This document shows, one piece after another, positions 45,752 to 59,331 of a stretch of 64,000 nucleotides of DNA. The notes under the pieces were generated by a model that did no database searches, was not told where the DNA came from, and saw nothing but the letters and a program-made list of their open reading frames with translations. Origin of the DNA: Candidatus Poribacteria bacterium (GTDB taxonomy: Bacteria; Poribacteria; WGA-4E; WGA-3G); assembly GCA_963665235.2 (NCBI GenBank), contig CAXXLX010000001.1, positions 608,001-672,000 of the forward strand, read 5' to 3'. Each line of letters begins with the position of its first letter. Positions within the stretch are counted from its first letter, which is position 1. The translations under genes and the position numbers were made by a program.

Positions 45752-46741
45752 GGCTCATGTAAAAATTAAGTGCCATTTTATTTTGGTTGTGCTATACTAT
45801 ATTTATGGATTTTCCAATAAACTCTCTATTTGATGAAGAAGAATCAGAGGTCTGGTTGCTAAATCATTTTCATCCTGAAGGTCTATGCTGTCCACATTGC
45901 GATGCGAGCGTGTCGGAGGCACGCAATTTCCGTAAGACCCAAGCGAGTGGTCTACAAGTCTATCGCTGCAAACACTGCCAAGGTGTCTACAATGTGTATA
46001 GTGGGACAGTCTTTGCGGGCAGTCGGTTTAGACCGTCGCAGGTGATTCTGCTTTTACGGGGTGTGTGTCAAGGTGTGTCAAGTGCCCAACTGGGTCGTGA
46101 ACTGGGTATAAGTCGTCAAACGATTCTGTGTATGCGGCGTAAACTTCAGTATTCTGCTGAACAGCTACAGCCTGCGGAGGCTGTGCCGGATGCGGTAGTT
46201 GAAACCGAACAGATGAGATGTTTCAAAACGAGGGTGAAAAAGGGACATTGCATTCGGATGCCTCAGATCCGCCGCGGCGTCGTGGGAATAAGCGTCGGGG
46301 CCACGGGACTTATGCCAATGATAGACCGCCTATTGTAGGAACGGTAGGGCGTGAAAGCGGTCAGCTGCGTTTACGCGTAGTGCACCACACCGATAGTGCG
46401 ACCCTTTCAGTCCACGTGCATAGATTCACTTGTCCGACTGCGAGCGTGTATACGGATGGGTGGCGTGGGTATAACCAGATTGAACGGGTGCGTGAGATTG
46501 TTGTTCATAAAGATGGGCAATGGGCGCGAGACGCAGATGGTGATGGTATTCGCGAGATACATACCAATACGATTGAAGGGGTGTGGACGACTGTGCGCAA
46601 CTTCCTGCGTCCGTTTCGGGGTGTTCATAAAAAGTTTCTTTCGGGTTACATTGCTATTTGTGAGTTCGCTATGAACCTAAAATCTGTTTCTGCTGATTTT
46701 ATATCAAAACTCGTCAAAAGCACTTAAGCTTGACATGAGCC
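45752..46741 (+). mobile_element. IS1595 family insertion sequence (990 bp)
   Basis: 22-bp imperfect IR GGCTCATGTAAAAATTAAGTGC/GCACTTAAGCTTGACATGAGCC; 8-bp TSD ACTATTTT. Confidence 0.92.
45805..46727 (+). pseudogene. IS1595 transposase (Zn ribbon, HTH, DDE), frameshifted
   Basis: CPHC..C..C, VETDE motif broken by extra GAACA near 46207, YTDGW.GY, HTNTIEG.W, FRGV.K. Confidence 0.88.
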
Positions 46742-46997: not shown

Positions 46998-47648
46998 TCA
47001 CTTTAGCTTGTGGCTACCACTTCCGATTGTCGACCAGTCTCGATCCACCGTCCAACTTCCACCTGCCGAATCAGTTGCCGTCCTGTGAAAATCCTTGGAC
47101 GCTTCTTCCCATGAACCGCCCGGTATAATTCCAGTCAAACGCCATTTCCAGTACACGGGGACTAATTTGATAGAACCACTGGCATCCCATGGATATTCCT
47201 TTGGCATTCTTTTAAAAGGCCCCGTAAATGATAACTGAATCTTGTGATCTATATCTAGGGCCAGGGCCACGGGTAGAAAACCGACCCACTTCCCGAGTTT
47301 CTGTGACGTTGTATTATTAGGATCGCCATAAGATTTTCCATCAATATTGCCATAGAAAAGGATATGTGCCCAACCGAAACCATGTGCTTTGGCTGTTATT
47401 GAAACTTTAGGGGAACGTGGTTCCTCATACCAAAAATCATACATGACTTTACCATCTGCTTTAGTTCTGCGATAATGGATAAAGAACTTACCATCTATAT
47501 TACACGAAATCTCGATCTCGGGCTCGCTTGTAAAATTTAAGTCTGGTGTTTCCACACGATGGAGATTGTGGGCTTTTACCCCCATCCCGATTGCAATTAT
47601 AAAACTAAAAATGAGGATGAAAAGTGAAATTCGCTTTTTAGATAACAT
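46998..47648 (-). CDS. Secreted hypothetical protein
   Basis: Signal peptide (..VKA-H); beta-rich, Trp-rich; GAGG RBS. Confidence 0.65.
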   Translation of the reverse strand: MLSKKRISLFILIFSFIIAIGMGVKAHNLHRVETPDLNFTSEPEIEISCNIDGKFFIHYRRTKADGKVMYDFWYEEPRSPKVSITAKAHGFGWAHILFYGNIDGKSYGDPNNTTSQKLGKWVGFLPVALALDIDHKIQLSFTGPFKRMPKEYPWDASGSIKLVPVYWKWRLTGIIPGGSWEEASKDFHRTATDSAGGSWTVDRDWSTIGSGSHKLK

Positions 47649-47658
47649 TGAAAACCTC

Positions 47659-48438
47659 CTATTCCCAGGGGGAAATTAAGTGTTCTAATCCATGTTCTCG
47701 GAGCGCGGCATTGAGTTTCTCTCGCGTAACACGGTCCGATTTTGCTATGGCTTCATCACCCACCGCACTGGTCATCACATGAACAGGACGAACCCTTTGC
47801 ACCGCTGCTTCAAGTGCCTCAATTTCCGCAGAAAGCCGCTCGACTTCATCAAAATCGCCGCGTGCTTCCGCCCATCCCTGATCTTCCAGCAGTTGATTAT
47901 ACCTTTCGAACTCCTCGCGGGTCGGTGCAAAATCGACTCTCATCTGTATATCCACAATTGGCTCGCCTATTTTATGTAAAACGGGGTTGCCGTTTTCATC
48001 CAAAAGCGGCACGTTTATATCCTTCCAGCGATATTGATATCCACGAGGCGGCGGTTTCAACCCATGTTGAATATAAAATTGGTCAAGGATTTGCTGCTGT
48101 ACTTCCCGCGAAAGCGACCAGAAATCGGGAGTGTTGTCGGTTTCCTGCCCATCAGATGTCTCATCAGACATGCCAACGTCAACCTGTTTGCTATCATCAG
48201 ACATTGGAACATTGTTTGAAGCAGGGTCAGATCGACGCTGTCTGTTCTGTTCCGACACAGTTACCAGGTCCGCAGTTCCCGGTTCGGTTTTCTTTCGAAT
48301 GTTATCTAACACTTCCTTTGCGGGAGGTTTATAGATAACTTCGGGTTCGGTATCTACATTGTGATTCAGTAGGAAGATGGCACTTCCGATAACTACTATC
48401 ATCAGGATACCAATTCCTACATAAACTTTTTGGGTCAT
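47659..48438 (-). CDS. Membrane-anchored hypothetical protein
   Basis: N-terminal TM followed by EPEVIYK and a low-complexity linker; GGAGG RBS. Confidence 0.7.
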   Translation of the reverse strand: MTQKVYVGIGILMIVVIGSAIFLLNHNVDTEPEVIYKPPAKEVLDNIRKKTEPGTADLVTVSEQNRQRRSDPASNNVPMSDDSKQVDVGMSDETSDGQETDNTPDFWSLSREVQQQILDQFYIQHGLKPPPRGYQYRWKDINVPLLDENGNPVLHKIGEPIVDIQMRVDFAPTREEFERYNQLLEDQGWAEARGDFDEVERLSAEIEALEAAVQRVRPVHVMTSAVGDEAIAKSDRVTREKLNAALREHGLEHLISPWE

Positions 48439-48940
48439 AAATCTATCCTCCTATAGACAGGATTCGTTATGATTCGATTCTGCTACACCTATAAAGCAAC
48501 TTTACTGTGATAACTAGCAACTTAGGTTAACTAAAGTTTGGACAATTTGTCTGCGTTTGCTGAGAGGGCCGGAGATGTATTCATCTATTTATTACCGCGT
48601 CCGGGCGGCACATAGGACCTCTCCCGATTTATAACAGATAGGGCCCGTGTTTGAAAGCATAGCATCAGACCGAAGTAAGCACAGTTTGCTACCCCTGATG
48701 CGACCGGGTGCCAGAAAACGAGCAGAATCTACCAGACATTTTCCAAACTTTCACTTTATCACTTTAATTATACACACAATTGCATTTTTTGTAATTTTTT
48801 GAAAAAATGACAAATATGTCCGTAAACATCTTTTTTGCAATGCGTTCAGCAAAAATCGTTGATTTTTCCGTTCACATATTTCAGTATAAGCTATTTCACG
48901 AAAAAAGTCAATTAATTTCGGAAAGATTTCGAAGCAAATT

Positions 48941-48977
48941 GTTTCCATTCCCTTCAAACCGGAAAACACTGGGGCAC
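48941..48977 (-). CRISPR. Solitary CRISPR-like repeat (37 bp) with adjacent leader-like region; no array or cas genes in window
   Basis: Minus strand GTGCCCCAGTGTTTTCCGGTTTGAAGGGAATGGAAAC has the GT start and ATGGAAAC 3' handle of type I/III repeats; non-coding flank 48978-49200. Confidence 0.6.
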
Positions 48978-49339
48978 TTACCCCTATTTTCGACCCACGC
49001 CACGCTTGACTCCGGAACCCCTAATCCAAACACGAACTGCACGGGGCTTTTTTTACCCCAAAAATTGGAGCGAAAATCGCATAAACCCTTACCAACACTG
49101 ACTCAAACTCGATTTTTACCAAAAAACACACCAGAATCAAGGCAACATACAGGTTTATAGACTATTTCATCCTCCCTATTTCCTTACCTATACCATACCA
49201 CTTTCTAAGAAATTAAATCAAGGAAAAATCAGTTTTTCGCTTCGCCCTTGCACTACATTCAGGATTTGTGATAAAATAAACAGTGGAGATATTTTTCATG
49301 CAATCATAAAACAGAACCAACATATTGAAGAGGTGAACG

Positions 49340-50785
49340 ATGGCGTATCCAAGTCTGAGGGATTTTGTAAAGGCATTGGAACGGGCAGGCGAACTCAAAC
49401 GTATCAAAACACAGGTCTCACCGGACCTTGAAATCAGCGAGATAACCGACCGCATCAGCAAAGCGGGCGGGCCCGCGTTGCTGTTTGAAAATGTGGAGGG
49501 CAGCGATATCCCCCTGCTTATCAATACGTACGGCTCTTACACGCGGATGGCGATGGCACTCGGCGTGGATGACCTTACGCGGATAGCCTACGAAATTGAG
49601 GGCATGATTAAAATCGGACCGCCGGAGTCGCTGCTGGATAAGGTCAAAATCCTCAGAATTTTGTCGCAGTTGACGAACTTCCCGCCAAAAAATGTCAAGC
49701 GTGGCGCATCTCAAGAGGTTGTCCTCACAGGAGAAGACGCTTCGTTAGACCGCTTACCCCTAATTAAGTGTTGGCCGATGGACGCTGATAGATATATCAC
49801 GTTGCCGCAAGTGTTTACACACAGCTTGAACACCGGCCAGCGAAACGTTGGCACCTATCGGTTGCAGAAACTAAATCCGCACGCCTTAGCTATGCATTGG
49901 CAGATTCACCACGACGGGGCTGCGCATCATCGGGAATATAAACAAGCAGGTGAACAGATGCCTGTCGCTGTCGCAATCGGCGGTGACCCTATTATGTCTT
50001 ACATCGGTACGGCACCACTTCCATCGGGTATTGATGAGCTGCTGTTCGCAGGATTCCTCCGAAAATCCAACGTTGAAATGGTGCCAGCAAAAACAATTGA
50101 TATGATGGTACCCGCCGAAGCGGACATCGTTATAGAAGGCTATATTGAGCCGGATGAGACGTGCATCGAGGGACCGTTCGGAGACCATACCGGATTTTAC
50201 TCTTTGCCCGATGAATACCCTGTTTTTCGCATCACTGCAATTACACATCGCAAAAATCCCATCTATCAGACCATCATTGTTGGCAAACCCCCGATGGAGG
50301 ATTGCTATATGGGGAAGGCAACCGAACGTATCTTTATGCCATTGATTAAAACGCAGCTGCCCGAACTGGTCGATATGAACTTGCCGTTATTTGGCGTATT
50401 TCACAACTTCGCCCTCATCTCAATTGATAAACGTTACCCCTTTCACGCAAAAAAAATTATGCACAGCTTTTGGGGGCTCGGGCAACTGATGTTCAGCAAA
50501 ATTATTATTGTCGTCGACAAAGACGTAGATGTGCAAAACGTTGAGGAGGTGCTTTTTTATGTGGGCAGCAACGTTGACCCGAAGCGAGATGTCACAATCG
50601 TCGAAGGCCCGGTGGATGTGCTTGACCATGCCGCACCCCTTATCGGGGCAGGCTCAAAGATGGGAATTGACGCTACAACGAAGTGGCCGGAGGAGGGTTA
50701 TCAGCGCGAATGGCCCCCAGAAATTCAGATGTCTGATGAAATTGTCGAGCTGGTCAACGAGCGGTGGAAGAAATACGGATTGTAA
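49340..50785 (+). CDS. UbiD family decarboxylase (menaquinone biosynthesis type)
   Basis: GPALLFEN, RNVGTYR, EGPFGDHTGFY, GKPPMED, GP.DVLDHA, GSKMGIDAT. Confidence 0.92.
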   Translation: MAYPSLRDFVKALERAGELKRIKTQVSPDLEISEITDRISKAGGPALLFENVEGSDIPLLINTYGSYTRMAMALGVDDLTRIAYEIEGMIKIGPPESLLDKVKILRILSQLTNFPPKNVKRGASQEVVLTGEDASLDRLPLIKCWPMDADRYITLPQVFTHSLNTGQRNVGTYRLQKLNPHALAMHWQIHHDGAAHHREYKQAGEQMPVAVAIGGDPIMSYIGTAPLPSGIDELLFAGFLRKSNVEMVPAKTIDMMVPAEADIVIEGYIEPDETCIEGPFGDHTGFYSLPDEYPVFRITAITHRKNPIYQTIIVGKPPMEDCYMGKATERIFMPLIKTQLPELVDMNLPLFGVFHNFALISIDKRYPFHAKKIMHSFWGLGQLMFSKIIIVVDKDVDVQNVEEVLFYVGSNVDPKRDVTIVEGPVDVLDHAAPLIGAGSKMGIDATTKWPEEGYQREWPPEIQMSDEIVELVNERWKKYGL

Positions 50786-58062: not shown

Positions 58063-59331
58063 TCAACTACCCAAGCCTAAAGACTTGTGCCTATTAAGAG
58101 CATCGAACAGCGTTAACTGTACCGCGTCTATTAAACCTTTGTCTCGTGCTTCGTTCTTGTTTCTCGCTTCATAGAGGGTGGTAACCCACCGCTCTCCACG
58201 AAAGGCAGCAGCTGCCTTAAAAAGAATGTTTAATGCAGCGTTGTGGTCTCGGTCTAAAGACGTGCCACAGAAACTGCAATTAAAGGTCCGTATCGCCAGA
58301 GAGAGTTTCTTTGGCGATTTCTGACCGCAACTTGAGCAGATTTGCGAAGTGTTTTTGGGCTCCACTTGGTGGAAATGGAAACCGTCTCTTTCGGAAACCA
58401 TGTTTCCGCACCACTCAAAGAAGGTTGCCCAAGACGCATCGCTAATACTCTTGCTGAGGTGTTTGTTCTTGACCATGTTAGAAACGCTTAAGTCCTCTGC
58501 CACTAATACACTGTTTTTCTTGTGGTGGTAGAGTTTGTAGATGAGTTGGTTTCCAATAAAGTCTTTGCGTCTGTTCGCGGTTCGCTCGTGGTGTAATGAT
58601 AGTTTGTGTTGTTGTTTCTTTGAACGGTTGCTACCTTTTTTCTTTCGAGAAAGATCTTTGGAATGTTTTTGGGTTAAACCTTCTGCTTGACGATACCAGC
58701 GTGGGTTGTTCTCTTTTTCGCCTCCGGATGTTGTCAGATAATGCATCGTTCCCATATCAACAGCTATAGCAGTTGTTGGGTCAACCTTCGGTGTGTCCGT
58801 GAGTTCACAGGTAATATGAGCATACCAGCCACTTGCTTTTTTAACGAGCGTAACGCCTTTGGGAGCCCCTTGAAGCGGGCGGTGCATATAGATTTTGACT
58901 TCGCCAAGTTTGGGGACTTTCAAACGGTCGTGTTTCCAGGCTGTTTCGCGTATCGGATGCTCGCGAATACCTTTGGACTTGCGGAGTTTCCACGACATAG
59001 ACTTTATGCTTTTTCTGTGTCTTGGATACCCTTTTTTCGCAGTGCCTTCTTCGCAGCGTCTATAGAAACCGGCGAAGGCTTTATCGTTACGTTCCAAAGC
59101 ACAGACTTGCATATCTTGTGGGACTTCGCGAAAGTCATCGTATTTTTTACGCGCAACCGTCAACTTCCGTTGTTGGTCGTAGCAAGAAACTTTTTCGCGT
59201 GCCGTTTCCCAAGCGACCTTGCGATCATGGCGAGCAGAGTTCTGAAGTTCACACAAATGGGCAAGCCAGTCTAATAATGTTGTTTCCTGTGTTTTCGTAG
59301 GATACACAGGGTATCTGAAAGTTAGTTTCAT
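58063..59331 (-). CDS. tnpB: RNA-guided endonuclease TnpB
   Basis: HTH (FRYPVYPTK.Q), RuvC-I AVDMG, RuvC-II AEDL, Zn finger CSSC..CSFC, RuvC-III DRDHNAALNI. Confidence 0.93.
   Translation of the reverse strand: MKLTFRYPVYPTKTQETTLLDWLAHLCELQNSARHDRKVAWETAREKVSCYDQQRKLTVARKKYDDFREVPQDMQVCALERNDKAFAGFYRRCEEGTAKKGYPRHRKSIKSMSWKLRKSKGIREHPIRETAWKHDRLKVPKLGEVKIYMHRPLQGAPKGVTLVKKASGWYAHITCELTDTPKVDPTTAIAVDMGTMHYLTTSGGEKENNPRWYRQAEGLTQKHSKDLSRKKKGSNRSKKQQHKLSLHHERTANRRKDFIGNQLIYKLYHHKKNSVLVAEDLSVSNMVKNKHLSKSISDASWATFFEWCGNMVSERDGFHFHQVEPKNTSQICSSCGQKSPKKLSLAIRTFNCSFCGTSLDRDHNAALNILFKAAAAFRGERWVTTLYEARNKNEARDKGLIDAVQLTLFDALNRHKSLGLGS

Follow-up and report, generated by a model that had tools for sequence, protein, structure and literature searches.

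This locus raises the question of whether a single CRISPR repeat with a leader-like flank is the gene of a new guide-like RNA or the remnant of an array. The window is the whole stretch of DNA that was analysed (64 kb, C1:608001-672000) and belongs to the genome of a sponge symbiont (Poribacteria), which has 5.3 Mb in 4 contigs. The repeat is 37 nt long and occupies 48941-48977 on the minus strand, exactly as an earlier note on this DNA had written it; it was identified from pattern matches and homology to arrays of the same genome. With up to 3 mismatches allowed, it occurs once in the window, and none of 100 dinucleotide-preserving shuffles contains a match. Its 17-nt 3' part, searched with the same tolerance, has one further match in the window, an unrelated 3-mismatch site at 58366; two matches of this part occur in 2/100 shuffles. 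Since the other 17-nt match is unrelated, a second repeat is absent after 48941-48977, and both searches agree with the earlier note on this point. The unit has one repeat only and so is not an array of at least two repeats with a spacer between them.

The window has no cas genes in its 64 kb as far as Cas1, Cas2, Cas6 and RAMP are concerned, the four families that were searched genome-wide (0 matches within C1:608001-672000), and the earlier note holds to that extent. The neighbours are UbiD (49340), an oxidoreductase, DNA polymerase I, a TPR protein and a split IS1595-type transposase. The setting is one of chromosomal housekeeping genes and not a phage. Two overlapping ORFs share the transposase (45787-46727) between them, with the zinc-ribbon part in one and the DDE part in the other.

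The repeat has relatives elsewhere in the genome. In a whole-genome search, its second near-copy is found at C1:459735 with 3 mismatches. This is the terminal repeat of a mini-array at C1:459 kb, 197 kb from the window, which has 4 repeats and 3 unique spacers; the two repeats are identical at 34/37 positions. The window repeat also shares 31/37 positions with the repeat of a large array on another contig (C2:254181-257493; 45 repeats of 37 nt and 44 spacers of 34-43 nt). The high-coordinate side of this array is adjoined by a cas operon in which every gene is on the minus strand. The operon encodes Cas1, a group-II-intron-like reverse transcriptase (RT), a SWIM protein, Cas6 (region C2:263635-263997), Csx19, RAMPs of the Csx7 and Csx10 types, a Cas10-like protein and an 805-aa RRM-RAMP protein, and Cas2 is at C2:263311. 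These genes make the C2 locus a type III-D-like system whose adaptation module includes an RT. The group-II-intron-like RT is separate from Cas1. The 805-aa type III RAMP protein (TIGR03986 family; L003 14683-17100, C2, minus strand) has an N-terminal RRM RNA-binding domain. The genome holds two further repeat families with cas genes of their own, and the repeat of one of them is 30 nt long.

In both the C2 array and the mini-array, the divergent, degenerate terminal repeat is at the low-coordinate end. The position of the cas operon and these terminal repeats indicate minus-strand reading of the arrays from a leader at their high-coordinate end. Several spacers resemble, in plus-strand reading, sense mRNA with a ribosome-binding site and a start codon. 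Spacers of such sense orientation are needed by a type III system that targets transcripts. Many of the C2 spacers read as purine-rich sense mRNA on the plus strand, and spacers 10 and 11 of C2:254181-257493 are neighbours that share about 25 nt of one protospacer. Both features would be in keeping with an RT-containing adaptation module that takes up spacers from abundant transcripts.

The high-coordinate flank of the window repeat contains the repeat-proximal 193 nt of a leader (48978-49171, minus strand). Aligned in the RNA sense, this segment is 87.6% identical to the C1:459 kb leader and 86.6% identical to the C2 leader; between the mini-array and C2 leaders the identity is 93.8%. A blastn comparison of the intergenic region with the genome matches window 48938-49171 to C2:257454-257686, which is the end of the large array. 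Taken together, repeat and leader are homologous over 231 contiguous nt to bona fide arrays that adjoin cas genes. The leader-like flank and the strand proposed in the earlier note are thereby borne out, with the cas operon position and the terminal degenerate repeats supporting the same strand. The genome search finds the flank homologous to array leaders, and arrays with a similar repeat are present in the genome and in its relatives, so neither of the two findings that the earlier note named as grounds for refutation holds. The non-coding character given to the flank also stands: 48978-49339 is intergenic and is crossed only by ORFs 48807-49160 (plus strand) and 49213-49524 (minus strand), neither of which has a Pfam family. 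A 1-nt indel between paralogous copies lies in this part of the flank.

The homology of the window leader ends at 49171, while the other two leaders run on for about 60 nt. The C2 leader has a promoter (TTGACA-17-TATACT with an upstream TG) that matches the consensus at 11/12 positions. A consensus scan of the minus strand of 48978-49450 gives no promoter-like site that reaches the threshold; such a scan, which consists of consensus matching only, is not proof of silence, and read-through from elsewhere may occur. The best site found by eye upstream of the window unit is weak (8/12, about 49219-49190, minus strand). By alignment to the two array leaders, the flank is a genuine CRISPR leader that appears to have been truncated before its promoter. 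Inspection of the module boundaries at 48530 and 49171 by eye revealed no cryptic element end and no target-site duplication.

The window leader has 19 lineage-specific changes, compared with 5 in the C1:459 kb leader and 7 in the C2 leader (binomial p = 0.007 for 19 vs 5). These private changes fit relaxed constraint if the window and mini-array units are sisters. The leaders alone group C1:459 with C2, and the excess in the window leader may instead reflect the greater age of a paralogue and not faster decay.

At C1:460224-460560 (L002 1990-2330), the end of a small element abuts the -10 box of the mini-array leader promoter and replaces its -35 region, and tandem hairpin motifs are found beyond this end. 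Degenerate repeat copies about 165-250 bp apart lie inside duplicated blocks at C1:1565300-1565900 and C2:253700-254200; the first of these regions is preceded by a duplicated copy of the leader promoter region.

The window repeat itself differs from its inferred ancestral form by a C-to-G change in the stem, which results in a G/G mismatch and leaves 4 clean pairs. The predicted hairpin has a minimum free energy of -6.1 kcal/mol (z +0.43), compared with -8.1 kcal/mol for the internal repeats of the mini-array and -8.3 kcal/mol for the C2 repeat. Judged by these folds, the window repeat is slightly damaged and its predicted hairpin is weakened. The 3' half of the repeat and the predicted crRNA 5' tag are intact save one base. 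This tag, assigned by repeat homology to the last 8 nt of the repeat (48948-48941, minus strand), is 1 base off the C2 tag and identical to the tag of the spacer-bearing mini-array.

The sequence that follows the repeat, where the earlier note placed a guide, begins with a 22-nt trailer (48919-48940, minus strand), which was recognised by its identity to the C1:459 kb locus and is common to the mini-array. The 41 nt at 48900-48940 are 100% identical to C1:459694-459734, which adjoins the terminal repeat of the mini-array. The first 19 nt of 48900-48940 are part of an A+T-rich extension of a multi-copy element, here called X, and recur in the copies of this extension at C1:887 kb and C2:328 kb. 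From 22 nt past the repeat onward, the sequence is this element. A target search of the whole genome with 48900-48940 (blastn-short) gives, beyond the paralogue and the copies of the extension, only chance-level matches of 13-16 nt. There is no match in the C2 cas locus (C2:257-277 kb) and none near any cas locus. The target search that the earlier note had in view therefore leads back to the unit's own paralogue.

Element X is MITE-like and lies at 48530-48800 on the minus strand; alignment of its copies and pairing of its ends show that it is bounded by inverted repeats at about 48531-48755. It is about 225 bp long, and its terminal words pair with each other as inverted repeats. The genome has 9 full-length and 2 internally deleted copies, and in 11/11 of them X is upstream of a co-directional ORF. 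The window copy points toward ORF 47659-48438. Ahead of X on the minus strand is an outward promoter-like cassette; most copies have TTGACA-17-TATAAT, but the -35 of the window copy (48795-48767, minus strand; consensus scan) is damaged. Part of this cassette resembles the promoter region of the C2 CRISPR leader (matches to query positions 3-97). The A+T-rich extension, recognised by comparison of X copies and designated X-long, occupies 48801-48918 on the minus strand in the window and is present in 4 copies (window, C1:459 kb, C1:887 kb and C2:328 kb). Each of these has a second promoter-like site, which in the window is TTGACT-17-TATACT at 48911-48883 (minus strand, consensus scan).

The terminal word of X occurs about 150 times in the genome, as the ends of several small elements or MITEs. 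X has no transposase assigned to it, and no target-site duplication is visible by eye among the aligned copies. X shares its terminal inverted repeats with other elements of a putative ISKra4-type family in this genome; the likeness to ISKra4-type non-autonomous elements is drawn from ends and position and not from a transposase. In the part of the source considered here, insertion sequences of the ISKra4 group (p-MULT 4) are described as inserting 13-17 bp from sigma-A promoters (PMC3942029). X resembles the gene-less derivatives described in that part in having inverted repeats on a common end word and a position upstream of a co-directional gene; unlike what is described there, it has a conserved promoter-like cassette outside one inverted repeat (PMC3942029).

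Two other roles for X were considered. A riboswitch-like leader was rejected, as the downstream genes are unrelated: among 10 downstream ORFs scanned, 3 match a family above the cut-off, each a different one, and the other 7 match none. The idea of a tracrRNA or guide scaffold was dropped once the inverted-repeat ends and the genome-wide end word had been seen. Compensatory changes are present at 2 of 65 predicted pairs. An Rfam search of 47500-50500 with E up to 1 returns a chance snoRNA-like match alone and no described RNA family for either the unit or X. One exact contig from an RNA run spans X and the downstream ORF, which hints that the two may be co-transcribed.

Two X copies contain inserts of 36-37 bp (C1:459415-459451, L002 1181-1217, and C2:328057-328093). 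The two inserts differ from each other and are unique in the genome, and on either side of each is a direct duplicate, 30-31 bp long, of one and the same stretch of X. These lengths would suit a spacer together with a duplicated segment the size of a repeat, and one CRISPR family of the genome has a 30-nt repeat. The 7-nt end that both inserts share and the short hairpin in each of them are unusual for spacers. Contigs of two public runs also contain the first insert.

Comparison of the window with the mini-array locus reveals a step in divergence. X-long and trailer have 12 differences in 415 columns (2.9%), and none from 48891 to 48959. The leader-side half of the repeat has 3 differences in 18 columns, and the leader has 26 in 194 columns (13.4%). 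The divergence of X-long plus trailer vs leader is significantly different (Fisher p = 2e-6). The step falls in the middle of the repeat and looks like a recombination joint. A step at this position is most simply explained if the two loci recombined, or underwent gene conversion, and crossed over within a repeat. Such a crossover is a classical route of spacer loss from arrays, and here precisely one repeat, a chimera, would remain.

The leader and repeat family is present in 18/24 genomes of the same family and in 0/16 genomes from three other families. Nine further leader loci in three relatives have 10, 0 (a truncated repeat, by eye), 7, 1, 4, 9, 1, 18 and 11 repeats; 2 are therefore single-repeat loci and 1 has a truncated repeat. 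The relative G016 alone has five leader loci with 10, 7, 4, 9 and 1 repeats and a sixth with a truncated repeat only. In G022, a leader with an intact promoter is followed by one perfect repeat, so single-repeat units can look fully functional. The exact 22-nt core of the repeat is found at 69 loci among the genomes of 185,579 species, and 68 of these are titled Poribacteria. At 16/69 loci the exact match is single: 8 have degenerate neighbours within 400 nt, 2 are at contig ends, and 6 are solitary inside contigs. A partial repeat follows at 2 of these 6 solitary loci. The sequences downstream of the solitary units are unrelated to one another and to that of the window. On these comparisons, single-repeat units are a recurrent end state of this array family, apparently without a conserved guide.

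Most likely, the window unit is a remnant in decay rather than a new regulatory RNA. The preferred reading, at a probability of roughly 75%, is that it is an orphan, decaying satellite of the type III-D-like CRISPR system on C2. The remnant would consist of 193 nt of repeat-proximal leader and one repeat, joined through the 22-nt trailer to X-long, and the same arrangement of leader, repeat, trailer and X-long is found at the 4-repeat mini-array. The single-repeat state may have arisen by recombination or gene conversion with this sister locus, with a crossover in the repeat removing any spacers, and a separate break may have cut off the leader promoter. The collapse is inferred and not observed, as no strain with spacers at the window locus was found. 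A collapsed array was one of the options listed in the earlier note, and it is the option that fares best here.

In its present form, the window unit is probably transcribed little or not at all on its own account, and probably has no guide function. If it is covered by read-through transcripts, Cas6 might cut the weakened hairpin and release a tagged RNA carrying the trailer sequence, which has no target in the genome. The last repeat of any array gives rise to a tagged RNA of this sort. Some activity may remain, since most of the leader and its junction with the repeat can still be recognised. With this junction preserved, the unit might conceivably take up spacers in trans.

As a remnant the window unit matters little, but it is a clear example of a type III satellite array shrinking to a single repeat, and the divergence step places the recombination joint inside that repeat. 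Recurrent single-repeat units without a conserved guide, in one repeat family restricted to Poribacteria, speak against reading such units as regulators by default. The part of a published survey that deals with type III mini-arrays regards them as probably degraded, non-functional repeats (bioRxiv 10.1101/2023.03.03.530964). The recurrent guide-less units in Poribacteria agree with that conclusion. Like the type III remnants described there, the window unit is away from the main array, is partly degraded and has no detectable target or positional conservation. Unlike them, as far as that account goes, it keeps 193 nt of leader, is joined to a MITE-like element and has its cas operon on another contig. 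The survey, in the part consulted, covers units in and near cas loci, and units as distant as this one are outside its scope (bioRxiv 10.1101/2023.03.03.530964). Its Francisella case, a type V-A leader with a divergent repeat, is likewise a solitary unit that is read as the remnant of an array (bioRxiv 10.1101/2023.03.03.530964). In Francisella, by the account in that part, the whole cas locus is missing, whereas the window unit has a cas locus in trans and a sister mini-array with the same flanks.

The alternative that survives best, although it is improbable, is that the unit is an empty but working satellite array, which is served in trans by the C2 Cas1-Cas2 (and RT) and Cas6 and either awaits spacers or has just lost them. 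In other systems, a leader and one repeat suffice for spacer uptake. The leader-repeat junction of the window unit is conserved, and its sister unit at C1:459 kb has 3 unique spacers, so satellites of this kind do acquire spacers. The relatives carry many satellite arrays with this leader, as in G016, and G022 provides a single perfect repeat with a promoter. However, the window copy is without the promoter part of the leader, what is left of this leader shows 19 private changes, and the stem of the repeat contains a mismatch. Among the contigs of four public runs (one of them RNA), none bridges the unique flanks of the locus with spacers, although contigs cannot show the absence of such a variant. 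The repeat-spacer joints in these contigs include the first spacer of the mini-array and one spacer that is absent from the genome. Exact-pattern scans of metagenome contigs for the trailer-repeat junction and for the outer leader boundary gave no match.

No contig of the RNA run covers 48792-48955, and as these are contigs and not raw reads, neither expression nor silence follows. Those that overlap the leader have a likeness of at least 88%, with 6-8 differences per 65-76 nt. They probably come from paralogues and settle nothing on expression.

A broader and somewhat speculative view is that the intergenic region records arrays that were dispersed, reset and born around X-long. The window unit would then be an empty acquisition site, served in trans, that moves together with the promoter-carrying MITE X-long and is reset when satellites recombine repeat to repeat. 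The two X inserts would be natural off-target spacer integrations, each seeding an array within a MITE. This view is doubtful as a whole. The locus would gain importance if spacers can still be added to the unit in trans, or if the inserts in MITE X turn out to be off-target spacer integrations, since natural births of arrays are, to our knowledge, rarely caught.

It is very unlikely that the unit makes a regulatory or decoy RNA, which would be either a CreA/crlRNA-like RNA with the trailer as guide or a Racr-like mimic of the repeat that would sequester Cas6 or the effector. In principle, a type III complex can be loaded, after 3' trimming, with just one repeat, its 8-nt tag and the sequence downstream, and the 3' half and tag of the window repeat are intact save one base. 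Against this, the consensus scan finds no promoter of its own, and the partial targets in the genome are chance-level matches of 13-16 nt, none in the C2 cas locus. The unit is neither in or beside a cas locus nor on a phage, and the sequence downstream is not conserved among the solitary units of relatives. In 40 relatives searched, X with the trailer was not found except for one 35-nt match. The part of the published survey on type III mini-arrays likewise gives no targets or conservation for them (bioRxiv 10.1101/2023.03.03.530964). The crRNA-like RNA guided by the adjacent sequence that the earlier note proposed is thus not supported, with the promoter missing, the hairpin weakened and no target but the paralogue. 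Its suggestion of a CreA/CreR-like or Racr-like RNA also finds little footing in a chromosomal housekeeping context and with unrelated downstream sequences at the solitary units of relatives.

The comparison with characterised RNAs of these two kinds points the same way. In the portion of the survey concerned, CreA/CreTA and crRNA-like type I mini-arrays have, as the window unit does, a degenerate repeat next to sequence that is not a spacer (bioRxiv 10.1101/2023.03.03.530964). They are described there as having two repeat-like sequences, being inside cas loci and carrying spacers partly complementary to a cas or toxin promoter (bioRxiv 10.1101/2023.03.03.530964). The window unit differs from this description in all three features, as it has one repeat, is outside a cas locus and has no such promoter complementarity. 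Racrs, in the section of the source consulted, are encoded by viruses and other mobile elements and are expressed (PMC10651486). The window unit resembles them as a solitary repeat unit that mimics an array repeat. Unlike the Racrs of that account (PMC10651486), it is chromosomal, between ubiD/polA-type genes and an ORF of unknown function, and has no promoter but a real leader.

The remaining idea, a chance or MITE-derived look-alike unrelated to CRISPR, is refuted. It would be favoured by the repeated mobile-element sequence with which the region is packed, but the absence of any match in 100 shuffles and the 231 nt of homology to arrays beside cas genes are contrary to it.

The genome also has an orphan unit of the same repeat family at C1:3063470-3063820 (minus strand). 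Its one repeat, which has diverged in the middle, lies about 200 nt downstream of a near-consensus promoter and is followed by a 40-nt spacer of unique sequence and by half a repeat. Similar mini-arrays, in which a promoter directly abuts the repeat, are found in other Poribacteria (L111, L091). This orphan unit and the L111 and L091 mini-arrays are closer in appearance to dedicated single-guide RNA genes than is the window unit.
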